DNA of 43,144 nt from Reclinomonas americana ATCC 50394 (Eukaryota), in assembly GCA_048213135.1 (NCBI GenBank), contig PS015059.1:106231-149374 (forward strand). The letters run 5' to 3'. Shown here one piece after another: positions 1,769-43,144 of this stretch. Numbering within the stretch: position 1 is the stretch's first letter; every line of letters starts with the position of its first letter. A program made the translations under genes and the position numbers. The notes under the pieces were generated by a model. That model was not told the origin of the DNA. It was given only the letters and a program-made list of their open reading frames with translations, and ran no database searches.

Positions 1769-2353
1769 TCACCTCTCGCCATCCGCAGCCGGCCACCGCC
1801 GCTCAATCGCCCGCACCACCTCGCGCACCATGTCGTCCACCGGAACCTCCAGCACATCCACCGCCACTGCATTCTCCTCCTGCTCATCCGGCTCCTCCAG
1901 CGTCGCAAACTGACTCGCCACCAGTGTCGCCGGCATAAAGTGTCCACGCCGCTCCGTCATGCGCCGCTCAATGAGCTCCCGTGATGCGCGCAGGTACACA
2001 AACCGCAGCAACAGCGACGGACACACATCTGCACCACCACCACCGCCGGTCTGTAGTCGCTGCCGGTACACGCGACGCAGTGCGGAGCAGGCGAGAATGG
2101 TGGTGGTCTTGTGCGCAGCAGCAGCAGAGTCGACAAGTGCATCGTGGAGCGCGTCGAGCCACGGCCACCTGTCGTCGTCTTGGAGGGGGATGCCGGCGGC
2201 CATCTTGGCCTTGTTGGCGGGTGGGTGGAAGTCGTCGGCGTCGAGCATGAGTGCGTCACCATAATGTGCGGCGAGTGCGGTGGCCACGGTGGTCTTGCCG
2301 CATCCGCACACACCCATGATGACGTATGCTGTGTCGGGGGAGGCCGGCTGCAT
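1769..2353 (-). CDS. IDNK: Gluconokinase (GntK/IdnK family), single exon
   Basis: Walker A MGVCGCGKTT, DADDFHPPANKAKMAAGIPLQDDDRWPWL, ILACSALRRVYR and HFMPATLVASQFATLEEP are hallmark gluconokinase motifs. Confidence 0.95.
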   Translation of the reverse strand: MQPASPDTAYVIMGVCGCGKTTVATALAAHYGDALMLDADDFHPPANKAKMAAGIPLQDDDRWPWLDALHDALVDSAAAAHKTTTILACSALRRVYRQRLQTGGGGGADVCPSLLLRFVYLRASRELIERRMTERRGHFMPATLVASQFATLEEPDEQEENAVAVDVLEVPVDDMVREVVRAIERRWPAADGER

Positions 2354-3172
2354 TCGTGAGGACGGAGGAGAGAGAGAGTGTGGGACAGAGGTGGTTGCAC
2401 AGAGTCCGCGGGTGGTGTGGCAGCGAGCTTTTGATACAGTGCTAGTGTCGTGGAGTTTCTACAGCGGTCGGCTGCGACAGAGCGTGTGTGGAGTTGTGCA
2501 GACTGCGACGTCGACGTCGATCAACGTCGTGATTTTGATCTGCATCCTTGCCAGAGGCCTTGTTCGTTCGCAATCGTACAACCACGACAGCATACCACCT
2601 TCATCAGAGTTCCATAACTGGAGGAGCTTGCACAGCGGATGAGAAAGCCGAGAAGTCGAAGTCGATCAGTTTTTTTGAGAATTCGATGTTGCTTCGCGTA
2701 CGAGCCCCAACTGTTGGTTATTCTGCAAGTAGAATTCTCGCCCCACCTTTCGCCTACATCCATCTCTTCAGGACCGCGCTGGTGAGGCGCTGAGCTCCGT
2801 GGTCAGTTGCAACATGTACAACGAATTTGAACGCTTTCGACCGCCGCACTCAGAGCCCCAGGCCTGCATACGGCACACGTACGCAGCGTACAGAGTGAGG
2901 CAGAGTACACTCCTCTGTGACGCCGGACCAACATGGGCCAGGAGCTTTCGCCTTCGAATTCAACTTGAGCAATATCGGATGATTTATCGCGCACCCCCTG
3001 CCGTTCCTGCAACCGCGTATCCCCTTCCACCGCATACGACGGTGCACTCCACGACGGCAAGAGGAAAAACAAGATATGGATATTGGGTTGCTCACGTGCG
3101 CGCGCAAAAAAAACGCACTCACAAACCCTCAGCGGAAATCCATTGACACACACGCGCGCGCGCAGCCACACA

Positions 3173-6100
3173 ATGGCCTCGCCATTCAGCGCCACTGTGC
3201 AGCCGCCTTCCACAGCAGCAGCAGCACCACCACCTCCACAACAACAACAACAACAGCAACAAGCAGGGGCGCAAGTGAACGTGCCCGTGTCGGCCATCTT
3301 TGCCCTCACGCACATCGACGAGCCCGTGGAAGCCGAAACAGTGCGTGACGAGGAGGCAGAGAGAGCACGTGCACACTCACTCACTCACTCACTCACTCAC
3401 AGGCGTGGCGCAATGCCTACTCTATGATTGCTCCATTGTTGAGTGGCAAGGGAGCAAGTGTCGCCGATCGCGCGTTGCAGAGCAAGGTGCTGCGTGCACA
3501 CCCGCACACTCCTCTCTCTCACACACACACATTCACTCACTGTGTGCGTGTCCATCAGGCACTGGAGGGTGCCAATCGCGAGGGATTCACCACTGTTGTC
3601 AATGGACTCTTTTATGCAATCATCAGTGGACAGCGACCATTCGATCTCGTTGCGCTGCCATTCACATGCGATTCTACTGCCATTCTACTGCCTGCTTACT
3701 TGCCATCATCATCATCAACAACAACAGGGCTTTGCTGAGCTGACGCTCGTCGACCAGGATCACTTCTCGTTGCTGGTCAAGAACCTCATGTTTCTGGTCA
3801 TTGAGAAGTTTTCGAAATGCAAGCCTGCTGTTCGCGAGGCTGTTGCGTGTCTCTTGACTCTGTCTTTCATGAGAGCGTGTGCTCATCGCCTTCACGCTGC
3901 AGATTCTGCAGCTGTCGCAGCGACTGGTCGAGGTGGCGCCGGTCGAGTTGCCGCACTTGTACATCAATTTGTTCCGCAACTGTGTGACGGGCGACTCGTC
4001 GGCGGCCAATGTGCAACTCGTCGCGCGACTGGTGGGCACCATGTGTGCCGCACAGTTGCGTCACTTGCTTTCGGGTGTTTGTTGCGCGGCGTGCTGACGA
4101 CAGCGTGTGTGTGCAGGGCGTTTCTGTTTAGCGACATGGAACTGATGCGCGTGGTGGTGTACGCGTGTGTGCGCTTCATTCCGGAGCACATGCACATTGC
4201 CAAGGAGGTGTGCCGGCAGGAGATTGAGATTCTAGCCCTGGCGCTCGAGCACAAGGTAGAGTGCATGCTGTGCGCTGTGAATGCATTTCATCGCCCTCAC
4301 GCTTCTCTTCAGCGCGACGATGTGAAGACCATTGGCCGCGACTTTTTCCGCCACTTTTGGTCCATTGTCTCGGTACGTCGCCGTGCGCTGTGCTCAATCC
4401 GCCACTTGCTTCCTCACCACAGCCCGTGTGTGCAGACATTCTCCTCGCAGCCGGCGCTAGAAGAGGAGTATCCCGAGTTCATGCCGATGTACAAGCGCAT
4501 CCCCGAATCATTTCTGAAAGAAGTCTCCGAGACTCCCTCCTCGAAGCGCGTGTTGGCCTCGCGTCTCTCGGTGGAGATGGAGCGCCAGCTGCTGTTTATG
4601 ATGAACAAGGTAGGTCTCTGAAGTGGTGCCTTTATCTCACCTCTTTTCCTCACATTCTCTCTATGTGTGTGTGCAACGCGCAGGTCAACATGGGCTACCA
4701 GGCACGTTATCAGCAATGGTTCCGCCAAAAGTTCCTCACCACCGAGGCTCCCGAGCGACTCGTCATGGACATTATTCGGTGCGCAACGCGTGCAGTTTTT
4801 TCTTTATTCGCTTCTCCTCACGTGTCCCTCGCAGATTCATCATCATGTGCTTCTTCCCCACCAATCAGCAACTCGGCTCGAGTCTCATCAAGCGCTGGGC
4901 CATGATCCGATGGCTTTTTGAGTTCATCTACCAGCGCTTCAAGGGGCGTCAGCTGCACGACCAGAGCCTGGCCGCCCTGCAGTCTCTCTTCCTCGACTGG
5001 ATCTATTTCAATCCGGAGCGCGACAACATTATGCATTTGGGTGCGCTGACGACGGCCTGCTCACCACCATTTGTTCCATGTCGCGTCTCACTCCCTTTCA
5101 CAGAACCCGGCATCCTGGTCATCACGAACACGCTGATGCCGGCCAACGAGCAATTCAAGCTTGCCGAGCACGCGCTCGACTACCTGGTCGACACGTGTGA
5201 ACGAGATGCCAGCTTCCGGCTCAAGGTGTCGCAAGCCATGCGATTGGTGGTGGAGAAGCGCGTCGTACGCTCCCTCAGTGACATCTACCGCTCTCGACTA
5301 CCGGGGGCGCTGCGCGACCGCCTGTACCTCTTGTTCCCCGAGTACTGTGACCCCACGGGCGCGGGGCCTTCGTCTCCGGTCGGCGGCGCATCGTCGTCCG
5401 CCACCCCACCCGCGTCACCCTTCGCGCAAAGTGCGCCACCACCGCCACAACAGCAGCAAGTGTCCCCTGGCGCACCTCCTCCGCCCAATCAGCCGTCGCA
5501 ACCGCCACCCCACACTTCTGCAGCGGCAGCAGCAGCAGCAGCGGCGGCGGCAGCGGCGGCGGCTTCTGGTGCACCTCAGCAGACCACGATGCTGCTCATG
5601 TCGGGATCTCCAATGGTATCGCCGGCTGTGTTGGCATCGGGTGGACCAATGAGTCGGCCGATGCGCACGTCGCCGGTTCCGCAGGGCGGAGCCGCACACT
5701 CGCGAGATCCCTCTCCAGTTGCGTGCACTCGCAGTCTCGCACGTGACGACTGCACGCAGTGTCTGACCATGTGCGATCAGGTCCGGTTAATGGACATGGA
5801 TGGCGCACCTCGTGTTCCCCCTGCCGCTCCGCCAACGCTGAGCGCAACAGGCGCTTCGCCAAGTCCCTCGCCGACTCCACCCTCGCGATCACCGACACTG
5901 AAGCCGCGCAGCTCACCTTCGCCGACTGTGCCGGGCAGGTCACCAACTCTGCGTCCGGCGCCAACCGCCGCCGCACCGTTGGCCCCACTGGCTCCTCTCC
6001 CTTCCTCTGCTCCTCTTGCTGCGCCAGCACTGTCAGTACCGCCGCCACCACCTCCGCCAGCGCCAGCTGCACCGCCTGCACCACCCGCACCACCACCGGT

Positions 6101-9100
6101 GCGCAAACCGAGCGCCGAGGATTTGCAGGCACTGATGAGCAAGGCTGCCAGCGACGAGGATGAGCTTGCCGAGGTTTGTGCATTTGTCAAGAGAAAGAGA
6201 AACTTGTCTCTGTGCGATTGACACGTGATGTCGACGCAGAGTGGCAATTTGGAGGACGACACGGCGGATTTGGAGAATGCTTGGGCGCGCATGAAGGAGA
6301 CATCGGAGACCATGTCGTCCGAGGACGATGACATGGGTGAAGGGTGTGTGTACGCCTTCACGTCCCCTCGTCATCTCCTGTGAATATCCCTTCACCTTTC
6401 ACGTGCGCGCAGTGCATCGGCCGCCTCGTCCTCCGCCAGCAACGGTGGCAGCAGTTTGTACGAGCACGAAGAAGAGTTGCCACGACGCCGGTCGTTTGCC
6501 GCCGCACCCAGTGGCCCCTCCCTCGCCAGCCTGTCCGAATCGGTGCATGTGCTGTCGTTCCGTGCGTTCCCCGAGGGCATTCCGGCCACCCTCTCGGTGT
6601 TTGCGCCGCAGCCGGCAGAGGTTTTCCATTCTTTTTTTGTTCCTGTCCAGACGGCAGTCGCACGCACGCTGACGGTTTGCTGCAGATCCTCGAAGCACTC
6701 TCTTTGCATCCGTACGGATCGTCGTCGTACACGGCCAATGTGGAGTCGGAGGTGCGGCCGGCATTGGAGCGCATGTTTGTGTCATTCCTCTCGATGGTAA
6801 GCGTGTTCGCTACCGTGCGCGCATGTGCTTGTATAGATAAGGATGCTCACATTGCGGTAGTCGGCGGTGGTGTGCACATCCGAGGTGATTTCGGATCTGG
6901 CGCTCTTCTTGGTGCGCTGTGCCAGCCACGAGCTGAACCACGCCGACAAGCTCCTTCGACGCGCGGCCGAGTTCCGTCTCGTGTCATTTCTCGATTTGCT
7001 GTTGAGCGAGGTTGATCGACACTGGGAGGTGCGTCTGGCGCTCGAGATGTCGCGCTGGTTGTCGAGGAGGACTCACCATGCGCACGCACACACGCAGAAC
7101 TCCAAATCCCTCCGTCTGACCGACCTGTACGTTAAGCTGCGTGAGCACGAACCGGCGGTCGGTTACTCGTTCCTGTACTACCTGCTGCGCAAGTACAAGG
7201 CGATTGTGTTGGAGCCCGTGGTGCGCTCGCCGCAGTCGGTCGCATACTGCATCGATGTGTCGTACTCGATTCTGGACGACGAGATCGACGTGGACAAGCT
7301 GGCGCCATACTTTTCCTTTGCCCCCAAGGTCGCAGCGCAGCGTACCGAGGGCCTCTGCCATGATTTGGAGGTGCGTACTGCTCTGTGCGCCATCGGTAGA
7401 TACGTTGTTGACTCAAAGAGTGCGCAGTGCTGTTGTGCCGACGATCTGCAACTGTCGACGGTGCTGGCCAAGTGCATCACCCATCTGGCGGAGGTGCTGG
7501 AGGTGGACCATCACACGGTCCTGTTGTACTCGATCGGGCTGCTGAATCCGCGGCAGATGGATGCGCTGATCACGGATATTGTGGCGCTGCGTTTGATGCC
7601 GTTCTCCAACTTTGAGTTTAAGGATTTTGCCGATATCATAGGTGGGTGCGGGAGGGGGATTAGAAGGGGAAGGGAGGCAGCGAGGAAAGTAGGGAAGTGA
7701 GATAGGGGCAGAGAAATGCGAGCAGTCTCGAAACTCTCGCTGTGCTGCTGACCATGCTTTGTCGCGCCGCAGTACGGAGTGTCGAGCTGGACATGTTTGG
7801 CCAGGAGTGTTTCTGGAAGTGCGTCCACACCTACATGGTCACTGCTGAGGTTCACAAGGAACTGCTGCCGCTGTGGCTGATGGTGGTCGAGCACGCCAAC
7901 TTTGAGTACCGAGGTGAGGCGTGTTGTCATGTTTCACGTCTGGGTTGCGTCACATGCGCACACACGCACACATACAGATCACTCGGTGCTCTACGCCAAT
8001 CTCCTGACCCTCGTCATGCACTCGGAGTTTGCACTGAAGAAGGTGTATGTGGATCGCATGCTGGACGGCTTCCTCCGCCAGTGTGTGCACCTCAACATTC
8101 CGATGGTCGAGGCGGGCGGTGGCGGTCTTACGCAGCCACTGGAGTTTGTCATTGCCCTGCTGTGTCTGTTGATGCAGCCGGGCAGTGCCGCCGGTCGACA
8201 CGTGGTCACCGCGCTCTCGAACGCGCTCGTCGACAAGAAGAACGCCTCCCGCGTACAGTACCTCATCACCATGCTCAAGTACTTGAGAAGGTGGGTGATA
8301 GAAGAAATGGGAGTGGGGTGATTGTGAGTGCCGATCTCCCTTTTGTGATATGCGCAGGCGAGACGACACGGTGTTCCAGGAGGAGAGCATGTCGACAGCA
8401 CTGCAAAAGCTGCAGGTGCGACGGGTGATTGATCAGGAGACGCTGCACTTTTTGTGTCCAGTGGTGGCGGGAGGTGAGTGCGGAGAGGGGCAAGGGGTGG
8501 GGGAATGAGCAAAGAGTGGGTATGAGGAGGGGGTTGAGTGGAGAGGTGGCATAGAAAAGTGGCTTGGCGTAGAATGGAAGGACTCAGCTGCGGAGGTAGC
8601 AAGGGCGTAGAGTTAGACACGAGAGCTGGGAAAGCAAGTGACCTTGCGAAGAACAAGGACATGGCAGTCGTGGCATAGAATGGAAGGACTGAGCTGCCGA
8701 TTACTAGGGAGTAGCAAGTCAGATCGGAAGGTAGAAGGCGAGTGAGCTTGCAAGAGATGCCAGGCGTGGCAACGGAATGGAAGGACTGAACGATTACAAG
8801 GGAGAAAAGAAGTCAGATACGAAGGTAGCAAGGCGCGTGAGACAGGCGTGGCAGCAGTCAATGATTGGAAAGGCGCAGCTGGAAAAATGAGTAAGCTGCC
8901 GATGGATGAGGAGCAACAAACGATGGAGCAGAGTGCAAAGATTGTGCTGGGGCATCGAAGGAGCTGCAATAGTTCGTAGAGTCTGAGTGCCTCTTCACAG
9001 GACGGAAAGGCAAGCGCAACGCGCAAGAGATGGAAGACGAACGTAACGCGTCTGCCGACTCGGATGAAGACGATGGCAACGAATCACCTCCACGAGCAGT

Positions 9101-27761: not shown

Positions 27762-28892
27762 ATGGAGGCGTGGGATGATGGCTGGGGCGATGCTGCTGCT
27801 GCTGATGAGGAGCATGATGAGAAGTGGTGGGAGGAGCGGGCCAAGGCCGATGCAGAGGCGTTCCGGGTGAAGAGAGCACGTGCGGCGGCGGTGGCGGCAA
27901 GGTCGGCGGCCTTTGCAAAGATCGCGGCCTCCATGCCCGGGAAGCCGAGTCAGGCAGTGGGTGAGTGGAGGGGGAAGAGGGAGAGGGAAGAGGGAGAGGG
28001 AAGAGGAGAGGGAAGAGGAAAGGGAAGGATGAGAGGNNNNNNNNNNNNNNNNNNNNNNNNNNNNNNNNNNNNNNNNNNNNNNNNNNNNNNNNNNNNNNNN
28101 NNNNNNNNNNNNNNNNNNNNNNNNNNNNNNNNNNNNNNNNNNNNNNNNNNNNNNNNNNNNNNNNNNNNNNNNNNNNNNNNNNNNNNNNNNNNNNNNNNNN
28201 NNNNNNNNNNNNNNNNNNNNNNNNNNNNNNNNNNNNNNNNNNNNNNNNNNNNNNNNNNNNNNNNNNNNNNNNNNNNNNNNNNNNNNNNNNNNNNNNNNNN
28301 NNNNNNNNNNNNNNNNNNNNNNNNNNNNNNNNNNNNNNNNNNNNNNNNNNNNNNNNNNNNNNNNNNNNNNNNNNNNNNNNNNNNNNNNNNNNNNNNNNNN
28401 NNNNNNNNNNNNNNNNNNNNNNNNNNNNNNNNNNNNNNNNNNNNNNNNNNNNNNNNNNNNNNNNNNNNNNNNNNNNNNNNNNNNNNNNNNNNNNNNNNNN
28501 NNNNNNNNNNNNNNNNNNNNNNNNNNNNNNNNNNNNNNNNNNNNNNNNNNNNNNNNNNNNNNNNNNNNNNNNNNNNNNNNNNNNNNNNNNNNNNNNNNNN
28601 NNNNNNNNNNNNNNNNNNNNNNNNNNNNNNNNNNNNNNNNNNNNNNNNNNNNNNNNNNNNNNNNNNNNNNNNNNNNNNNNNNNNNNNNNNNNNNNNNNNN
28701 NNNNNNNNNNNNNNNNNNNNNNNNNNNNNNNNNNNNNNNNNNNNNNNNNNNNNNNNNNNNNNNNNNNNNNNNNNNNNNNNNNNNNNNNNNNNNNNNNNNN
28801 NNNNNNNNNNNNNNNNNNNNNNNNNNNNNNNNNNNNNNNNNNNNNNNNNNNNNNNNNNNNNNNNNNNNNNNNNNNNNNNNNNNNNNNNNNNN

Positions 28893-29681: not shown

Positions 29682-30268
29682 GTCTCGTCGTCTGTNNNNN
29701 NNNNNNNNNNNNNNNNNNNNNNNNNNNNNNNNNNNNNNNNNNNNNNNNNNNNNNNNNNNNNNNNNNNNNNNNNNNNNNNNNNNNNNNNNNNNNNNNNNNN
29801 NNNNNNNNNNNNNNNNNNNNNNNNNNNNNNNNNNNNNNNNNNNNNNNNNNNNNNNNNNNNNNNNNNNNNNNNNNNNNNNNNNNNNNNNNNNNNNNNNNNN
29901 NNNNNNNNNNNNNNNNNNNNNNNNNNNNNNNNNNNNNNNNNNNNNNNNNNNNNNNNNNNNNNNNNNNNNNNNNNNNNNNNNNNNNNNNNNNNNNNNNNNN
30001 NNNNNNNNNNNNNNNNNNNNNNNNNNNNNNNNNNNNNNNNNNNNNNNNNNNNNNNNNNNNNNNNNNNNNNNNNNNNNNNNNNNNNNNNNNNNNNNNNNNN
30101 NNNNNNNNNNNNNNNNNNNNNNNNNNNNNNNNNNNNNNNNNNNNNNNNNNNNNNNNNNNNNNNNNNNNNNNNNNNNNNNNNNNNNNNNNNNNNNNNNNNN
30201 NNNNNNNNNNNNNNNNNNNNNNNNNNNNNNNNNNNNNNNNNNNNNNNNNNNNNNNNNNNNNNNNNNNN

Positions 30269-31656: not shown

Positions 31657-33378
31657 TTAGCGCGCCGGAGGCGCAGCACCAAAGAGTGACTCGCGAATGC
31701 GCGGCAACGACGTCTCGAAAATCAGCTCCAAGCGCTCATCCAGTGTGTTGCTGCAGCGAATGAATCCACCTCGTGTCTCCAACGCCACACCACCAGAGCT
31801 GCGACAAAAAGAGTGAGTAAACTGGATACAGAGAGGGGTGAGTTTTACCAGCCGAACGCACCTAATGTCAGGCAACTTGCCGCGGCTCAGCTCCAATGTC
31901 GTGTCCTTGCCTGCGTGGAGACGAGGATCAGTGGCCAGTGTGTCACGAATCAAAGCACAACACACACACACACACACATCACCCCACTTGAGAGGTCACA
32001 TGCAAACTCAGAGCTACACTGTAGTCACCAGCAAGTGTGGTATGACAAATTTTTCACGCGATGTGTAGTTTCATCGTTGTTGCATCCATCCCCAACCCAT
32101 CGCCCCGCCATACACACACACACGCACACACACACACTCACCCGACTTGGTCTTGTAATCGCGCTGTGCGTCGGCAAACACACCCTGTGCCAGCGTCTTG
32201 TCCTTCTCGCGCACCACCACGAACAGGTTGCTCTCGTTCATCTTGAGCATGCACTCCACCATCAAATCCTTCAGCAGCACCTTGTAGCGGTTGGTATCCT
32301 GCGACGGAAAGAGAAGGGCTGAGTGTGCAATCACGCAAGAGACGTACTCCCATCATGTTCAACGTGAAACAAAGGAAAGTGATCTGATGCATCATCTTCA
32401 ACCCTGCATGAACAAGATCCCCTGCATGCATTCGAGCAGACGAAAGCAATCATCACTCGTTCCAACAATGCACACGCCTCGCAAGTACTGAGGTGACTCT
32501 GCCTCTGTCTCTCTCTCTCTCTCTCTCCATGAGCAATCAGCAAGTGATGCAGGCAACTCATCAGACTATCTCTCTCCCCTCTCAAATCAACCACACTGCA
32601 CAAACGCTCACTCTCTCCGCATTCTCGAGTAAGCAAGCACAAGCACAAGCACCAGCCTTTGCCTTCCCACAAAGACAAGCCCTTGCCTCCCCCGGCCTTC
32701 AACTCACCGAGCTCACTTGCTTGAGTTGCTCACGGACTTCCTCTTGCAGCCTCTTGATGAGATCATCACGCGCTCGCAGAATCTCCAGACGCGACTCCTT
32801 GATCTCCCGCGACTCATTGCTGACACAAGCAACAACAATGAGCATGCGAAAATAACAAGACCCTCCAGAACACACACGCAACATCTTGCGCTGTGTGGCC
32901 TGCTCCTTCTCCTTGCGCTCAAACTCCTCCTCCAGATCACGCATGCCCTTGGCCTGCGCCACCAAACAAAGTGTGTGAGATGACATGACACACGCAAATG
33001 TCGCTTGCGCACACACACACGCGCTCTCTCTCTATCTTTCTCTCATGCACACACACTCGTGTGGGGGAGGGGGCGTGCAATAACGCAACGAGAATGCGGC
33101 CCTTCTCATCGGCGGCAGCCTGACGCGCTTGCTCACCAATCTCAGCGCACTTCTCCTCACCCTCTGTCCGGATGCTACAGACACACGCCACAACAACATC
33201 AGCAACAGACACATACACACACATAAACAGCACACAGCAGCAGCAGCGCAACAATTGAATCATCGAGGAGATCTGCATACATGCAAATGTGAGCTCACAC
33301 AAACAACAGCCACAACAGTGTCTCTCCCGCTCTCTCTCTCTCACAACACACCTGTCGCTTGACTTCATCGGCATTCAT
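31657..33378 (-). CDS. ATP6V1E: V-type proton ATPase subunit E, 8 exons
   Basis: MNADEVKRQISSMIQFIRTEGEEK..EKGRIL..EEFERKEK..SRLEILRARDDLI..YKVLLKDLM..SGGVAL..IRCSNTLDERLELIFETSLPRIRESLFG. Confidence 0.95.
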
Positions 33379-33540: not shown

Positions 33541-35251
33541 ATGTCGCGTGATGGGCACAGTTTCGCGCATTTTCCATGCCTGTGAAGTGCACTGCTGCTC
33601 ACTTGTCCACAGGATGCAGCAGCACCACTCGTGGAATGGACACAGGCGGTTGTTGTCGCGCAGTGCGGAGGCGTGCTGGTGCGTCTTGCACAGCGCAATG
33701 TGCGGGAGTCGTTTGTGCACGGTCTGGCACACGAGAGAGTGCACAAAAACAAGCAGCAAAACGTCGCTCTTATATGTCGCGTGTGGCAGGTGTGCGTCGT
33801 CTGCAGTCGGCGCTCATGGAGGGCATTCGTCACGTGACGAGTGCAGTTCATGCGGTGCTCAGCAGCGCTGGTGTTGATAAAGTTCCGCGGCATCTGTGCA
33901 GTCGGCGACAAGAGGCACTTCGTGTGGTGAGGCGGGCAGGCAACGGTGCGCGTGTACGCAAGTGGGCGGCGGCTGCGCCACGTGGCTCGCAACGTGCGCG
34001 CTTCCTGGCAGAGTGTGTGACGGTGGTGGACGAGATGGAGCGGTGGCGAGCTCGAGGAGCTTGTGACGATGAGGTGGTGCTGCTCGAGGTGCTGCAGCAT
34101 CGATGGCGGTTCCACTGGCGGCTGCCGTTTCTGTTGGCGCGTCTATATGTGGACCTGCATGTGTGTGCGCTGTTGATGCTGGCTGCTGGCCACGATTACG
34201 AGGCGGAACGGGAGTGTGTGGCGGTGTGGAGACGGCGAGATGCGCAGGCGGTGGCCGTGCTATCGAGCATTATGGACGTGGAGGAGGGTGGTGCGCGGCT
34301 TCTGCCCCGACTGCCGACGGTGGGCATGGTGTCACGCGCAGTGGATGGTGACCAGCAGGCGCCGGCAAAGGAGACGATGCCGTCGTTGCCTCCTGAGTCA
34401 GTGTTGGCAGATGTAGGCGAGGGTGGAGGGGAGGAACAAGTCGTGGTTTCCGCACCCGTGGAGGCGCCATCGGCAAAGCGGGCTTGGGAATCGCTTGCTC
34501 ACTGGCCCCTCCTCTACGGCACCATTCCCACGGCTACCGTGACGCTTCCTCCTCATGACTCTGCGCACAAATCGTACGATCTCTCGTCTTCGCCGTTCTC
34601 GTTGGAAACCAGGAGCTTCTCATCTTCCGCTTTTCGTGCGCACAGCACACCGCTCTGGGAACGCCAGCTTGCCATCGCCACTGGCACTGCCGCTCACCGC
34701 CCTCCCAGTGCCGTGGAAACACTGGACGCCGAACGGCGATCCGAGTACCTCACCACACTTCTCCACCGTGTGACCGACGATCCCGCAGCTGCTCAGCGCC
34801 TCCGCTTGCAACCGCCTCTGATCGCCGACGGAACGAGTACGCAATCCACACTGACGCCCTCGGAAGTGGCGGCTCGTGAGTGTTTACGAGAGTGAAAGCT
34901 GTCCCACACAATTGCATGGCGGAATCAGGAGAAAAGGTCGGCGCTTGCTCTCTCTCGCACACACGCACACACAGTTGTTTCCCCTCACTGCGCGTGTACG
35001 TGCATTAGTTTGTGCTCTTGCAAAGTGGCGATGGTCGCCAGTTTGTGATGCCGCTGGATGGTGTGCGATTCAGCGCACCTCTGGCGCACATGTTGCTCAG
35101 CGATGGTCAGTGCCTCTCTCTCCCTCTCTCACACACATACACCATGTGAACAACTCATTGCCTTCCTTGTGCTCACGCAGTGCCACACGGTGACGCCGGC
35201 AAGAGCGTGTTCACCGTCGCGAAGAATGATGACGCTGCTCATCACTCATGA
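33541..35251 (+). CDS. Hypothetical protein; main exon ~33790-34875, terminal exons uncertain
   Basis: A long open frame (33576-34895) with helical-looking sequence lies between V-ATPase E and SphK. Short flanking exons are plausible but their phase is ambiguous. Confidence 0.5.
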
Positions 35252-35311
35252 CAGAGAGTTCATTAAAATATGGTTGCTGCTTTGTGCATGCTGCTTTGTG
35301 CGCAACAACAA

Positions 35312-37786
35312 TCAGGGCGAGCAGATAACGTTGGCCAAGTGCGGGTGGATCTCGACGCGACACGGGGCGACGGGCACATTCTCGCCGTCGAGTGCCATCC
35401 ACGTGCGATGCTCGCCGGGCAGTGGCTCGAGGACCATGGCGCGGATGCGAATGTGTTCCATGCCTGGCTGCGTGTAGCATGTGCCGTCGTCCAGCTGTGG
35501 GAGGTGCGGAAGAGGTCAGAGGGAGAGGTATGGAGGAGGGGAGGAGGAAGGAGCGCGTGGCTCAACGCAACTCCAAAGAGGATCTTGGCCAGTCGGCAGC
35601 GCCCCACTCGTCGGATGAGCATGAGGTGGAGTAGGCCATCGCCGATGCGTGCTGGAGGGCAGATGGTGGCGTTGGCTGCGACGAGAGCGATGTGAGGTAG
35701 GGGTCGGGAGTCGCCAGACGTAGGGGAGGAAAAACTCAACCAGCAAGTTGCGCAATGTTTGTCAGCGTTACCATCATCACCGGCTCATCAATCGTCTTCC
35801 ACGGGAGTGCCGCTGCTTCTCCTGCGAAATGAACCCCACCGATCAATACTAGGAATACGCTCCATGCGCCAACTATGCGCAATGCTCCCCCCAGTACCTT
35901 CTGCGTGCTGCTCGCCATTGGCGGCCAGAGGAGCATGCTCCGAGTGCTCGTCCAGTGTTGGTAGATACCGCAGTCGCGGACCGGCGGGCTGTGCGGCCGC
36001 GCCAGTTTCCAGATCGCCACGCTGCACGGCCACACCCACGCCACTACCACGGCCACCACCATCGCCACCCTGCCACGTCGCGCACCTTCAGCGCACCAAA
36101 TAACGCAATCTCAAACCTGTAACACGCACCTCCAAGTCGTCGGTCACCAGCTCCGCGTACGGTCCATTCAGAACTTCGCCCAACCCTCGCACCGTGGCAT
36201 ACTCGTCCTCCTGTGCCTCGAGGTACCGCAGACGCATCGGATGTCTGCATTGTCGAGATTGGCAACCAAACACACCAGAAGAAGAAACACGAACGCCTCC
36301 TCTCCCAAGCTAACAACTCACACGTGAGCCTTGCATACTTCGCGAAAGCCGCCCCAGTCGAATCGAGCCTTGCCGAGACAGCCGCGCAAGTGATCCGTGC
36401 CCACATCAATGTTGGCCACCAGACCGTAGGTCAGCGACAGGAAGCACACGTAGTGCTCGGCACCCTGCGACACGCTGAACAAGTCCAGCGGCTTGCTGTA
36501 GCCGCGGGCCACTGCCAGCGCGCCCTGCATTGGTTCCATAATGCCGGCGGCTGCCGCCAACGCATTGCCAGACCCGGCAGGAATCGGACCAATACGGACG
36601 GCGCTTGCGCGTTGCCAATCTGGTCGATGGAAAAGCCCGTTGACGACCTCAAACAGGAGACCGTCGCCGCTGACGCACGCCATGCAGTCGACGCTGGCGA
36701 GATCCATGGTGCCAGCGACCTCGCGTGCGTGACCCGCATATTGCGTCTCTGTCGTGTGTGTGTGTGGCGTACACTGTAAGTCGACAAACCCGAGGAAAGC
36801 AGTACCTCTACATCGCACCGATCAACTCGTAGTCGACAAGAGCGCGATCGAGCACCGGCTGCACACACGAGGCCCACAGCTTGGGCGCCGTCTTGGTGCC
36901 ACCAAACGGATTGACAAACACAACAACACGCCGCCGCCGCGGCAGGGGTCCTGCAGGGGAGAATCGGGGTTACCACCACCGCATGCTCGCACACACATAC
37001 ACACACATAGCATGATCGCACCCGCACGGAACCTTCCACTGGCAATCCCGCAATCAAACACTGCACCGCTGTCACCCATCGCATCGCCTCATCGGCACTC
37101 TCACACGAAAACGACTCGTCGCTCAACTGACGTGTGGTGCCACCACCACTACGTTCGCAGAATGAGTGGGAAAAATGACAGGCCTCACACCATCAAAAAA
37201 AGTACACTCACCAGCACCCGGTCGCCACCTGCTCGACCGCCGACACCACGAATCGCCGATCGTTGTCGTCGCTGATCGAGGCACCCACCAGCCACTCCGC
37301 ATCAAAACCCGATCCACCACCCGCTGCAAATAATGCAATCGACACATCAATCACACACACGAACACGCGCATTGAGCAAGGGAGAGAGTGTGCGTGTGTG
37401 TCTGCCATACCAAACTCAGGCTCCGTCTCCGCGGCGCGCAGGTAGATACCCGAGGGCGACACCACATTCACCGGCGCACCAGCGTGTGCATCACTATCAC
37501 CAGCAGCAGCGCTGCTGCTGCTGCAACAGCATGCACAACAGCATCGGCACGAGCCTCGACGTTGCTCGGCGGTCCACGAGAAGCCAGCGCGAGTCAGACG
37601 GCCGAGCACGGCCTCGTCGCCACGTGCAGTGTGGCGCACCAGCACCGACTGCATTATGGTGCTGTGCGAGGGTGAGGCAGGTGGTGGCACTGCTGCTGCG
37701 CCATCGAGATCTGCTGCGCGGCTGCTGCTTCCGTAGTCGGTGTTGATGCCGCCGTATGTGGTGGAGGGTGCACCGCCGGCGCTCAT
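35312..37786 (-). CDS. SPHK: Sphingosine kinase / long-chain base kinase (DAG kinase family) with N-terminal PH-like domain
   Basis: TQYAGHAREV, VSGDGLLFEVVNG, IPAGSGNALA, PLDL, SLTYGLVANIDVGTDHLRGCLGKARFDWG, DGLLHLMLI and MALDGENVP. The last exon ends LANVICSP*. Confidence 0.92.
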
Positions 37787-37960
37787 GAGTGGGACGTGAT
37801 GTTGTGTGATGAAAGTGGTTTTGGTTCATCCGTTCATCAGCAATGAAGGCCTCGAGGGTCGCAAACGCACTGCTGCCGCAGGTGCTTCTTATTCATTCAT
37901 GGACAGCAGTGCGGTGTGCACGTGATCGCGGGCAGCGAGGTGTCGATGTTCTTCAATCGC
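37170..37960. repeat. Direct repeat copy 1: SphK upstream region, exons 1-2 and start of intron 2
   Basis: Core 37236-37848 is nearly identical to 42135-42747; the ends are more diverged. Confidence 0.95.
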
Positions 37961-37985
37961 CAGGCACATACGGACTATGCTACAC

Positions 37986-38069
37986 NNNNNNNNNNNNNNN
38001 NNNNNNNNNNNNNNNNNNNNNNNNNNNNNNNNNNNNNNNNNNNNNNNNNNNNNNNNNNNNNNNNNNNNN
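37986..38069. other. Assembly gap
   Basis: Run of N. Confidence 1.
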
Positions 38070-38547
38070 TACCGTGGATAGAGATGTTTTGCTCGTTTCG
38101 GTGACGCGATGCACTGACTATCCCTGTGTGTTGATCGCGGAAGCTGGACTGCAGTTTCACGGTGTATGTCATCAGCCTCCGCAGCCGCCTGCCGAATTGT
38201 GTGCTGGAGACTGTTCTAGTTTCCAACCGCACTGTCCACCCTTTCCGAATTTACCGTACCCACCGGGCTCGTTGGCGTGCCGGACGGCTACAGCATCACC
38301 AGCGGTGGCGCAGGAATAGCCGTCACTTACAGAACCGCTGCCGACAGTGGTGCAGAACTCCATACTCTACTGGGCACGTTCACCCTCGAAGCCGTACAAC
38401 GCGGTTACTAACCGTGATCTGTACGACTTCTCCAAGGTGAAGCTGGCATCGTACGCCGTTGGACTGCGAATTCAGGTGACGATCTGAGTGATGGAATTCG
38501 AAGTAATTCGTGTCACTTGACCATCGTCATCAATAACCGTTGGTCTT

Positions 38548-41500
38548 TCAATCGTCGGCTGGCTCGAGACACACGCCAGTGGCGTCGACTGTGCTGGACA
38601 ACGCGACAGCAGCACCGGCGTCGCGGTCAGACAGATCGAATACGACGCGCGACTCCAGCTCGCGCATGTGGGAATCATCGTCAAGGCCGCATCCAGTAAG
38701 CACACTGGCACAGCGCCTAGCAAAGTCGGCAAAGTCGACAAAGCCGGCCGCTCCACGTTGATCTCGGATCGCCATGGCAGCTTCACTGGCTCGACGGTTG
38801 CTCAGTGTGTCGCCAGAGACAGTGATTAGCAGGGATGCCAGAATTGTCGGATGGCACGAATTCACGCCGACGTAATCTGCGAATGATATCCAAGATGTAA
38901 CCACGCGGCAGAAAAGCACGTTGCACAACCAGCTGCTGTTGTTGCCACACTCACCGAGTTGCTGCAGTACTAGCCGCGTCAGTAGCGGACCAAAGAAGCC
39001 TTGAGAGGCGTAGTCAATGACAACGGCATTCGGCAGCAGGGCAGCCAGTTCGCGGTCGTTCATCACAGTCGGTACGCGTTGACTGCACACAATGACCGGA
39101 ACGAATACGACATCGACAGCAGCATCTGTATCAGCGCGGCGGCGTCGCGTCCACAGCTCTTGCAGTGCAGTCTGCCAATAAACTGCGCCGTGAGCGAGCG
39201 GAGCGGGCACACATAGCTCATATGGCATACTGCGCACCGTGAAGAGCAGTGTCGTCAGCAGCTTCTTCTCGTTGGCAGTGTGCTGTGCTTTCGCTTGCAC
39301 CACCAAGCACACTCGTTGGCACGGGCGGTCAGGCAAGAGGTCCAACACAACAAAGCAATCCACGCCGACATGGCCGGCCGTGGCCATCCACACATTCCTC
39401 TTGAGCGACGGACGTTCCAACTGTTGCTCGTAAATATGATGCTGTGTGTCAGTGCGCAACAAACACACAAGAGTGTTGTAGTTGGAACTAACTACAACAA
39501 ACCTCCGTACAGAAGCACTATCGCCAGCGGTGATCAAAGAGACGTGAGTAAATGTATCAATCAGGGCAAAGAGAACCAACACTGCACACTCTCACCTCTT
39601 GCAACTGCAACTCGGCTGGACGGCGCAATGTATCGAGCTCTATCGCACGAGCGTCAACAATGGCAGAGAGCCGATCGCTCTCCAACTCTGCCGTCGTGGG
39701 AGCGAACACGTGTCCTCGGAGACGCGGTTTCATGTGCACGTCGGTGATGTTGACAGCAGCATTGTCCAAACGGTAACGCGCCAGAACCTCGTCAAGCGAG
39801 TCGCCGCCACGCATCTGCTCAGTGAGACCACTGAGGACATTGCGGAGAAGAGGCGGCTCCACCGCTGCTGGCCCAGTTGCACCTTGGCGCACGCTAGTGT
39901 GTCGATGTACCAGCAACACCAGTCGGAATAGGTGCGCCACAGCAAACTCAAAGTCTTCACCCTGCCGCGGTTTCAGAAAGGCAACACATGCACAACACAC
40001 CTGGCTACGGTCTCACTCACCGTGCTGGTGGCTGCAGCATTCATGGAAAACGCAGAACTGGCGATACTGCTCAGCGCAGTATTCACCTGACTGCACACCG
40101 GCTTGTCGGCCATGTCTGGACAGAAAAACAGCGGTACGCGCAGGCGACTAAGGGACGGCCTGAACCGATCGGGATCTCGGAGAAGAAAACCCTGACTTTC
40201 CAACGTGACGAATCGTGCGTCAAGATTAGAGACTTGCACGCCGCGAAGCGCGAGGACTACATCATTGTCTGTCAGCAGATGGCAGTTGCGCATGGCCGTG
40301 CCGGCCAGAATATCCAACCATCGCACTACAAATACAGTGAGATGCACGGAAACCCCCACACATAGCCAAGCCTCTACGATCGTACCTGCGCCAGCGGCAT
40401 CAGATGCGTTCGCAACGCCGGCAACACCGTTCAACAGGTACACCAGTGAGCGCGGATGCCAGCCAACGAGGCGGAGACACGCCAGAATAGGAGCACACAT
40501 GCGCCAGCCGGAGACAAAATCCGCCAATTGTTCACGGCATTGACGACACACACAACCTACAGTGATGACGGACATGCACAGTCAGCACATGAACAAGAGG
40601 CAGTGGAAGAGGGAAGGACTGTCCACGCACAGGAACGTGACGCCACAATGTCCGGCTGAACACGAGCGTGCTGCATGTTCGCATGTTCGGGCACACCAGT
40701 CCGCAGTCGATCAGGAAGCTCCTCGAGAATGCGCTGCACGGCCTCGTACCGCAAGGGTGGAACTGGTACCAAGATAGGTGCCACGCCCGTTGCATAGCAG
40801 AGCCCATCGTGCATGGTCGGATCGTCCTCCAGTGTGCCACTGAGCGTCACCGCCAATCGACAGGCGCTTCCTAGAGCGAGCTCGAGCACGGTCCCGCTCA
40901 AAACGTGGTACATCTCACGCAACACTCGACGTGCCAGCTCGATGCCACCAGGTTGCACATGGTCTTCTCTGACGAGAAGTTTTTGCACCTCGTCGATGGA
41001 GAGCACGACAACAAAACTGCAGAGGAGGCATCATGATTAGCCACGTCTAGTGCCTGTCATCTGCTTTCAATTGCTCTCTCTCGCCAAGCACACACACACA
41101 CTTCTGCCCGCACCAAGTACACGAACCGTTTGTCTGTGGCAACGTTGTGTCGCCTTCGATGACACTCAACGATGTATTTCAACGCCGCTCGCAAGGAGCA
41201 CCTTGGTAGCTGATCGGGACGCCGGCAACCGCGACGGCGCTGATTCATCAGGAAGGCAAAGTACTCCGTGATGGGCATATCGGCGCAAAAGTACGCTCGG
41301 AGGACTCGCCACGCCAGGGAGTTCTCACAGCGCTTGTTAATCGTGTCCGTGTAATCCACACCGTCGAGTGTCCTCAGCCGTTCAATCTCTTGGACACCGT
41401 CGCCGTGGTTGTACTTGATGTACAAGTGCAGAAAGGCAAACATAGCGCCACAGTCGCCAAGTGATTCTGATGAACGAGTGAGAGACAAAAACACAGAACA

Positions 41501-41906
41501 TTGCGCTGTCGGAGTGCACACCTCGCAGCAAACTCGTCGTGCGCAGTGCAAGCGACGTCTTCCCAGCACCGGCTACCCCCAAAATGAACGGGACGCAGAT
41601 TTGTTGCTTGCTGTTGAGTGACGATGCCTGGACCACAGAGAAGACTGCCCCCAGCAATTTTCTTGTGGCCTCTTTCTGCCGCTGGTACGGGATGTACACA
41701 CTCAGATCGCGCAATCCCCAGTAGGACAGCGTCTCCTGTGTTGTGATGGGTCTGTTATCCTCAGTGGTGATGTGACAACAAAAGATGGTCAGTTGACTTG
41801 CCTCGCTCAGAGCTGAAAACGTGGGCCGTGAGCCTCCAGCCGGCAACAAGTTGAGAATGTACCGCGTGTCATCGTCCACTGAAGGCGCAGAATTCGCACA
41901 GCCCAT
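38548..41906 (-). CDS. Crinkler/RHS-type effector-like protein: N-terminal lipidation motif, P-loop NTPase, PD-(D/E)xK-type (QxK) nuclease and C-terminal HhH; about 9 exons
   Basis: MGCANS start; Walker A GVAGAGKT (~41556-41579); Walker B FVVVLSIDEVQ; VTLSGT; GWHPRSL; GEDFEFAVAHL; GHVGVDCF..CLVVQAK; NAVVIDY..FFGPLL; VGVNSCHPTILASL..AMAIRDQRGAAGFVDFADF. The exons join in frame through GT-AG introns. Confidence 0.8.
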
Positions 41907-42079
41907 GGTGAGCTCCCGCGGCGTATGTAAGGTGCGAGTCTTGCGGGACTCTCGCTTGAGAAGGACGAAAGCAAGAACAGAAGTTGTGTGACGACGCGAC
42001 GTTTCTCAAGTAACGAGGCGCATGGAAGCACGAATGCATAACAACGAAGAAGCCAGCGCTCAGGCCTAGGGACGGCGAG

Positions 42080-42857
42080 AAAAAATGAAAAGACAGGTCT
42101 CATCATCATAACGCACACACTCACCAGCACCTCGACCGCCGGCACCACGAATCGCCGATCGTTGTCGTCGCTGATCGAGGCACCCACCAGCCACTCCGCA
42201 TCAAAACCCGATCCACCACCCGCTGCAAATAATGCAATCGACACATCAATCACACACACGAACACGCGCATTGAGCAAGGGAGAGAGTGTGCGTGTGTGT
42301 CTGCCATACCAAACACAGGCTCCGTCTCCGCGGCGCGCAGGTAGATACCCGAGGGCGGCACCACATTCACCGGCGCACCAGCGTGCGCATCACTATCACC
42401 AGCAGCAGCGCTGCTGCTGCTGCAACAGCATGCACAACAGCATCGGCACGAGCCTCGACGCTGCTCGGCGGTCCACGAGAAGCCAGCGCGAGTCAGACGG
42501 CCGAGCACGGCCTCGTCGCCACGTGCAGTGTGGCGCACCAGCACCGACTGCATTATGGTGCTGTGCGAGGGTGAGGCAGGTGGTGGCACTGCTGCTGCGC
42601 CATCGAGATCTGCAGCGCGGCTGCTGCTTCCGTAGTCGGTGTTGATGCCGCCGTATGCGGTGGAGGGTGCACCGCCGGCGCTCATGAGTGGGACGTGATG
42701 TTTTGTGATGAAAGTGGTTTTGGTTCATCCGTTCATCAGCAATGAAAGGTTGCAAAGGCACTGCTGCCGCAGGTGCTTCTTATTCAATCATGGACAGAGA
42801 CAGTTGTGCGGCGTGCAGGTGATCGCGGGCAGCGAGGTGTGGAGGTTCTTTGATCGC
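42080..42857. repeat. Direct repeat copy 2 of the SphK 5' region
   Basis: Matches 37170-37960. Confidence 0.95.
42126..42685 (-). pseudogene. Truncated duplicate of sphingosine kinase exons 1-2 with a 14-nt frameshifting deletion
   Basis: Same MSAGGAPST.. start as 37786. It lacks CAGGTGGCGACCGG near the end of exon 2, and no kinase exons follow. Confidence 0.75.
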
Positions 42858-43111
42858 AAATATATCGATGCACGCATTCGCGCTGCGATCGCGAACACGC
42901 AGCGCTGCTGCGCGTGCTGCGTGCTCGGAGTTGCTTCGCCTCCTGGTAAGCTCGAGTACTGCTTTCGTAGTCGCTGTAGCTGGTACGCTGGTCCTGAACT
43001 CAGGCATGCGGGTGCACATTGGCAGAGCTCTCGCTGCCACAAGCGTTCGTCCGCGCAGCGCACGCTGCATTCTGCATGCATGCAGCGCTGGTTTCACTCT
43101 TCGGCTTCTCT

Positions 43112-43144
<33 letters not shown>

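Follow-up and report, generated by a model that had tools for sequence, protein, structure and literature searches.

Partial gene duplicates make up 21-76% of young duplicates in the worm and fly data sets covered by PMC3449122, and gene conversion between paralogues is described as widespread in the sections of that source drawn on here. Both processes are relevant to a stretch of 43,144 nucleotides from Reclinomonas americana ATCC 50394 (Eukaryota; NCBI GenBank assembly GCA_048213135.1, contig PS015059.1, positions 106,231 to 149,374 of the forward strand), the whole of which is referred to as the window. In this window the 5' end of a sphingosine kinase gene occurs twice in the same orientation, once at the head of the kinase gene itself (copy A) and once as an isolated fragment (copy B), with a further gene, here called the middle gene, lying between the two. 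On balance, the arrangement is probably the result of an old local partial duplication of the kinase 5' end, the core of which was later homogenised by ectopic gene conversion. Seen in this way, the locus exemplifies partial gene duplication and interlocus gene conversion, both common processes, in an intron-rich protist. Its biological weight is small as it stands, and its value is a practical one for annotation.

Copy B resembles the partial gene duplicates outlined in the corresponding sections of PMC3449122 in that it is homologous to only a part of the longer copy A, spans less than a gene, comprises the promoter-proximal region and the first exons, and ends in a premature stop. Unlike the duplicates outlined there, a complete gene lies between fragment and parent, and the two do not form a simple head-to-tail tandem. 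A further difference is that telling the derived copy from its source needs an outgroup at this locus. The parallel with conversion in the human alpha-globin and RHD/RHCE genes, to the extent that these are treated in the same sections of PMC3449122, consists of a block of 98.7% identity inside homology of 75-89%, and of an identity that spans intron and coding sequence together. The locus differs from these cases as a single pair in one genome, in which the ending of the tract at insertions or deletions (indels) is our reading of their position. In comparison to sphingosine kinases and LCB4-type lipid kinases (PF00781), the gene headed by copy A shares the catalytic domain, but what was duplicated is an N-terminal extension for which none of the seven homologues tested gave an alignment, and copy B carries no kinase.

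The repeat, the anatomy of the genes involved, the truncation of copy B, the uneven divergence between the copies and the intact model of the middle gene are directly visible in the sequence. Self-blastn of positions 37000-43144 against the whole window returned a single strong non-trivial match, a direct pair at 37232-37960 and 42131-42857 (735 bp, 95.8% identity, E = 0). The limits of homology (about 37170/42080 and 37960/42857) were set with a MAFFT alignment and its column-by-column differences. A repeat search of positions 35000-43144 yielded three co-linear direct families at the two copies and no inverted repeats of at least 40 nt. The kinase gene, both copies and the middle gene are all encoded on the minus strand, and the repeat includes about 175 bp upstream of the ATG and about 45 nt of intron 2. 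Copy B is located about 4.9 kb upstream of the complete gene, with an interval of 4119 bp between the copies including a gap.

Divergence is distributed unevenly along the repeat. The core contains 8 substitutions in 615 gap-free columns (98.7% identity), whereas 12 of 106 aligned columns differ in the upstream flank at 37847-37960 (88.7%, plus indels of 8 bp and 6 bp) and 12 of 48 in the intron-2 flank at 37170-37217 (75% identity, plus a 3-bp indel). The initial annotation had proposed same-orientation copies at 37170-37960 and 42080-42857 with about 4.1 kb between them, a core of about 610 bp with some 8 substitutions, and two ends that are clearly more diverged; self-blastn and MAFFT confirm the coordinates, and the remaining figures are likewise reproduced. 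Past either end of the repeat, no homology was detected by blastn-short with 7-mers, and local alignments were at the level of shuffled sequence, with the observed score reached by 843 of 1000, 181 of 200 and 114 of 200 shuffles. On its upstream side, copy A is followed by just 25 readable bp before the gap begins. An exact 40-mer from the repeat core had no match (0) among metagenome contigs.

Copy A heads a complete kinase gene that is presumably functional. The Pfam scan of long reading frames covered 150 of the 193 in the window, namely those up to coordinate 32319, and nine of the other 43 (about seven exactly and two nearly) are among ten Pfam-scanned frames of 35263-42005; the 34 frames outside the scan are mostly overlapping, lie on both strands and fall between 32334 and 43142. 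Downstream of copy A, minus-strand positions 36318-36821 match DAGK_cat (PF00781) with 60.5 bits, where the cut-off is 23.6 (E = 1.5e-16). With the catalytic domain (36321-36821) as query, 225 proteins were matched at E <= 0.001. Among the 120 matches listed, those with a name are sphingosine or sphinganine kinases, and identities lie mostly at 35-47%, with one short alignment at 51%. The identification of the repeated segment as a sphingosine kinase 5' end therefore holds, given the catalytic domain downstream of copy A and the naming of its best relatives. In a tblastn of seven homologues against the window, alignments were found only at 36912-35321 and never in exons 1-2. Because all seven homologues skip these exons, the duplicated coding part is a poorly conserved N-terminal extension.

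Some features of this extension and its introns are worth recording. A Cys-rich run in the extension (CRCCCACCC, then serines; within 37411-37786, minus strand) has no counterpart in the seven homologues compared. Intron 1 (37324-37410 and 42223-42309, minus strand) is 87 nt long, a multiple of three, and free of stops, which is why the stop-to-stop reading frame crosses it in both copies (frames of 205 and 305 aa); retention of intron 1 would add 29 residues without truncating the kinase. Intron 2 of the complete kinase (37149-37229, minus strand) can be drawn in two in-frame ways that keep the frame open, either as 63 nt (GTGAGT...CGTAG) or as 102 nt with an upstream GTGGCG donor and a downstream CAG acceptor. 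The upstream GTGGCG donor overlaps the 14 bp that are missing from copy B.

Both copies share the same ATG, a 376-nt exon 1, an 87-nt GT-AG intron 1 and a GTGAGTGT donor at exon 2, and exon 2 of copy B measures 98 nt instead of 112 because of the 14-bp difference. In copy B this donor is followed by a 59-nt intron-like stretch (42124-42066) with a pyrimidine tract and TAG. If the stretch is spliced out, the predicted frame would run for one more codon and then reach a stop at 42062-42060, which lies 153 nt upstream of the start codon of the middle gene. No DAGK match was found in the reading frames of 41382-42724, and the sequence downstream of copy B is not homologous to the part of copy A's gene that holds exon 3 and contains no later kinase exon. 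Homology is thus confined to 37170-37960 and 42080-42857, and copy B lacks the rest of the kinase. As a truncated fragment without the catalytic domain, it would encode only the N-terminal extension. In annotation it should not be named a second sphingosine kinase.

The suggestion that a near-identical core with diverged ends hints at gene conversion proved to be statistically real and fits conversion. Both flanks are more diverged than the core (Fisher p = 2.6e-6 for the flank with 12/106 differences and 4.2e-10 for that with 12/48), and the maximum chi-square of divergence along the repeat was reached by 0 of 1000 permutations. Purifying selection was rejected as the cause of this uniformity, since the 87 nt of intron 1 are identical between copies A and B and coding changes are not biased towards silent ones: in our reading of the alignment there are 4 replacement and 3 silent differences, with no excess of the latter. 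The core is significantly less diverged than its flanks, selection does not account for the pattern, and the pattern would fit an ectopic (interlocus) gene conversion tract. In addition, the two limits of the core coincide exactly with indels, one of 14 bp and the other of 8 bp. A conversion tract that stops at heterology would fit a core with such limits.

Several points weigh against an old duplication followed by conversion. Conversion is deduced here from one sequence pair without an outgroup, and the flank with 75% identity spans only 48 aligned columns. Diverged ends and a clean core could also result if repair synthesis close to the junctions was error-prone when the duplication took place. 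Furthermore, the adjacency of copy A and copy B depends on a single scaffold join across 84 N, and the gap near copy A lacks a microsatellite as explanation; the repeat itself may have broken the assembly.

Two well-kept blocks stand out inside the diverged upstream flank, one of 50 nt at 94% identity (37857-37906 / 42748-42797) and one of 59 nt at 86% (37902-37960 / 42799-42857). These blocks may be putative promoter elements of the kinase gene. Copy B carries a 6-bp insertion at 42793-42798.

The proposed history has two steps, and we infer their order, as well as conversion as the cause of the uniform core. First, a 0.78 kb kinase segment would have been duplicated in the same orientation, long ago; an old age is assumed because the flanks are 11-25% diverged and contain several indels. 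Conversion between the linked copies would then have reset the 615-bp core to 98.7% identity, with the tract ending at the 14-bp and 8-bp indels. The duplication itself could have come about by a templated copy-and-paste of the 0.78 kb 5' fragment to a place upstream of a pre-existing neighbouring gene, or the middle gene could have arrived together with a 0.78 kb duplication of its target. Copy-and-paste, target duplication and single crossover of a circle each predict the observed layout. In our judgement the cassette and circle routes rank below copy-and-paste, because the middle gene shows neither mobility nor foreignness and a circle needs a prior event of a similar kind. Tandem duplication of the whole 4.9 kb unit was rejected, as the region upstream of copy B should then resemble the 3' flank of the middle gene, to which it is unrelated. 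Unequal recombination, which the initial annotation had listed among its options, is contradicted in its whole-unit tandem form by the unrelated sequences upstream of the two copies. Near-identical direct repeats of 615 bp could recombine with each other, deleting the middle gene and leaving one hybrid, probably intact, kinase 5' end.

What can be said about the middle gene bears on how it came to lie between the copies. Its model has an ATG at 41906, a stop at 38548-38550 and an unbroken coding frame of 2847 nt, interrupted by six introns that are all GT-AG, measure 55-154 nt and are similar in look to those of the kinase. A retrocopy origin is ruled out by these six introns. The predicted product carries a single Walker A motif (residue 110) and, at residue 244, the Walker B-like VVVLSIDE, both of which conform to the patterns applied (GxxxxGK[ST] for Walker A; a hydrophobic strand followed by D[DE] for Walker B). 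In Pfam, no match to the middle gene reached the threshold of a curated NTPase family, and that to NACHT was weak (E = 0.011; 16 bits, with the cut-off at 26.7). Atlas gave leads for exon 1 to the fragmentary P-loop families ATPase_2, BrxC/D, AAA_16 and TniB with scores of 0.87-0.89, where 0.9 is needed to count as more than a lead; it assigned the C-terminal exon to no family (best score 0.85). The best PADLOC match was not convincing (E = 0.0085 at 12 bits), and there was none in NCBIfam. Pfam, PADLOC and NCBIfam recognised neither an integrase nor a transposase, nor any other family, in the exons.

Relatives were equally hard to find. For the C-terminal exon (297 aa), 0 relatives turned up in a comparison with proteins of similar length and 0 in one with 1.84 billion representatives, and the first exon (128 aa), compared with longer proteins, gave 0 matches from 834 candidates. 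In a PDB sequence search with three exons, two had no matches and the third returned RPB2 rows at chance level (E = 0.44). An AlphaFold2 model of the C-terminal exon made without an alignment was unusable (mean pLDDT 37.2), and an impression of nuclease-like motifs in this exon was dropped for that reason. No second copy of the middle gene was found in the window by self-blastn. With a GC3 of 0.62, the gene lies within the range of 0.58-0.71 of neighbouring reading frames, and for this reason, together with introns like those of the kinase, it is called resident-looking. Based on these sequence features, the middle gene is best described as an orphan, resident-looking gene for a predicted P-loop NTPase.

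The initial annotation had called this gene an effector, a label that is not borne out by a start resembling a signal peptide, by a host-targeting motif, by a family match or by relatives. The product begins with MGCANS, which we take to resemble a start for myristoylation or palmitoylation and not a secretion signal. In crude tests, the maximum 8-residue Kyte-Doolittle mean within the first 35 residues was 1.53, and neither an R.LR (RxLR) nor an L.LFLA (LFLAK-type) motif occurred in the first 150 residues. The middle gene should therefore not carry the effector label in annotation.

Of the competing explanations, an assembly artefact survives best, although it is unlikely. Contig 38070-43144 would in this case belong elsewhere, or would represent the other haplotype of a structurally heterozygous locus, placed in series by the scaffolder. 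The sole link between the copies is indeed the 84-N gap, and the assembly is a draft with three N gaps in the 43-kb window (28037-28892, 29696-30268 and 37986-38069). The gap 28037-28892 is bracketed by long (GA)-rich and (GT)n microsatellites, 29696-30268 has (CTT)n/(CT)n microsatellites on both sides, and a (CT)n run closes the window at 43098-43144. As a rule, contig breaks in this draft seem to be due to simple repeats, and the first two gaps are explained in this way because microsatellite runs flank them. Unlike these two, the gap at 37986-38069 has ordinary sequence without simple repeats on both sides. This break was probably caused by the sphingosine kinase repeat itself, and the gap should be flagged in annotation as probably repeat-caused. 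The caveat of the initial annotation about a gap at one junction is thus valid, with 84 N located 25 bp beyond copy A. The simplest form of such an artefact, an overlap of the same sequence at both gap edges, was rejected, since 400 bp on each side share nothing beyond 9-mers.

The copies themselves also speak against misplaced haplotypes. They are not simple alleles and are probably distinct paralogues, as they differ by four indels (14, 8, 6 and 3 bp), their flanks are 11-25% diverged and all four outer flanks are unrelated. Moreover, copy B and the upstream region of the middle gene form one uninterrupted contig (38070-43144), so that the fragment beside the middle gene exists whatever the gap hides. 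A recently converted core is also more to be expected between closely linked repeats, which would agree with the adjacency of the copies in the scaffold.

It is also unlikely that the middle gene arrived as a cassette in the 5' region of the kinase, either by integration of a circle or by insertion at a staggered break with a 0.78 kb target duplication. In Campbell-type integration, as known for plasmids and prophages and for integrative transformation in yeast, a single crossover inserts a circle, the inserted DNA comes to lie between two same-orientation copies of the homologous segment, and recombination between these copies allows it to exit. A cassette would produce both repeat copies in one event and could leave by the same route. 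Direct repeats of host sequence around one gene are the layout this predicts, the homology ends at sharp breakpoints with unrelated sequence beyond, and copy B keeps what would be the original upstream context. Unlike Campbell-type integration, however, the locus offers no circle, recombinase, short core resembling an attachment site, or vector-like or foreign sequence, and the enclosed DNA is an intron-bearing, host-like gene. The proposal of a foreign or mobile cassette is accordingly unsupported: composition (GC3) and the six GT-AG introns are host-like, positions 35000-43144 contain no inverted repeats of at least 40 nt, no recombinase, transposase, integrase or other family was recognised in any exon, and the gene occurs once in the window. 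A circle carrying exactly this host fragment would itself require an earlier event of the same kind, and the diverged flanks make the event old, so that recent mobility is not indicated. If the middle gene did come and go by recombination between the repeats, the locus would be more interesting.

Alternatively, copy B could be active, with its promoter and first exons serving the orphan gene, but this is quite improbable. Copy B would act either as a start and 5' leader, which would place a 159-codon upstream reading frame ahead of the orphan gene, or as an in-frame N-terminal fusion, which needs an alternative acceptor. The ATG of the middle gene follows the stop of copy B so closely, on the same strand, that a terminator and a separate promoter would hardly fit between them. 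In its upstream region, copy B matches the complete gene at 88.7-98.7% identity. Its exon 2 donor has phase 0, and splicing to any of four AG sites would keep the frame open into the ATG at 41906. Yet the best-looking acceptor, with a pyrimidine tract, TAG and a 59-nt intron, leads straight into a stop. The in-frame sites, moreover, read AAG or GAG, while each of the 7 introns modelled here closes with CAG or TAG. An MGC start would also lose any role in N-terminal acylation once it became internal. If copy B did drive the orphan gene or fuse to it, the locus would gain in interest. A lineage-specific gene would then have borrowed, and kept synchronised, the regulatory front end of a housekeeping lipid kinase. 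The most far-reaching versions, in which copy B would be a 5' module of the orphan gene kept fresh by conversion, or the whole a homology-driven cassette that integrates and excises, are equally remote. An old partial duplication with later conversion remains the preferred explanation, and the features discussed are compiled in the table.

Table. Positions of the features discussed, in window coordinates.
Feature	Position	Strand	Remark
Copy A	37170-37960	-	about 175 bp upstream of ATG, exon 1, intron 1, exon 2, most of intron 2
Copy A, exon 1	37786-37411	-	376 nt; ATG at 37786
Copy A, intron 1	37410-37324	-	87 nt
Copy A, exon 2	37323-37212	-	112 nt
Copy B	42080-42857	-	same upstream segment, exon 1, intron 1, shortened exon 2, 59-nt intron-like stretch
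Copy B, exon 1	42685-42310	-	ATG at 42685
Copy B, intron 1	42309-42223	-	87 nt
Copy B, exon 2	42222-42125	-	98 nt
Core	37232-37846 (partner 42131-42745)	-	candidate gene-conversion tract
14-bp stretch, end of exon 2	37218-37231	-	in copy A only; one core edge
8-bp stretch	37847-37854	-	in copy A only; other core edge
Truncated reading frame of copy B	42060-42685	-	predicted 159 codons if the 59-nt stretch is spliced out
Rest of kinase gene	35321-37169	-	downstream of copy A only
C-terminal region matching sphingosine kinase homologues	35321-35488	-	tblastn
Orphan gene between the copies (middle gene)	38548-41906	-	seven-exon model, 948 codons
In-frame AG acceptors, candidate exon starts	41954, 41948, 41939, 41912	-	
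Scaffold gap, 84 N	37986-38069	none	starts 25 bp past the upstream end of copy A
Unique sequence upstream of copy B	42858-43144	none	unrelated to the sequence upstream of copy A; ends in a (CT)n run
Integrator subunit 3	3443-6218	+	Ints3_N split over three frames
AAA_33-type kinase-like P-loop protein	1772-2458	-	
V-ATPase subunit E	31660-31995	-	

Outside its gaps, the window has a GC content of about 0.52-0.68 and thus consists of GC-rich eukaryotic DNA. Most of the long reading frames (150 of 193 scanned) had no Pfam match. Those that did include Integrator subunit 3 (best E = 9.5e-18), an AAA_33-type kinase-like P-loop protein (E = 1.2e-6) and V-ATPase subunit E (E = 1.4e-10).

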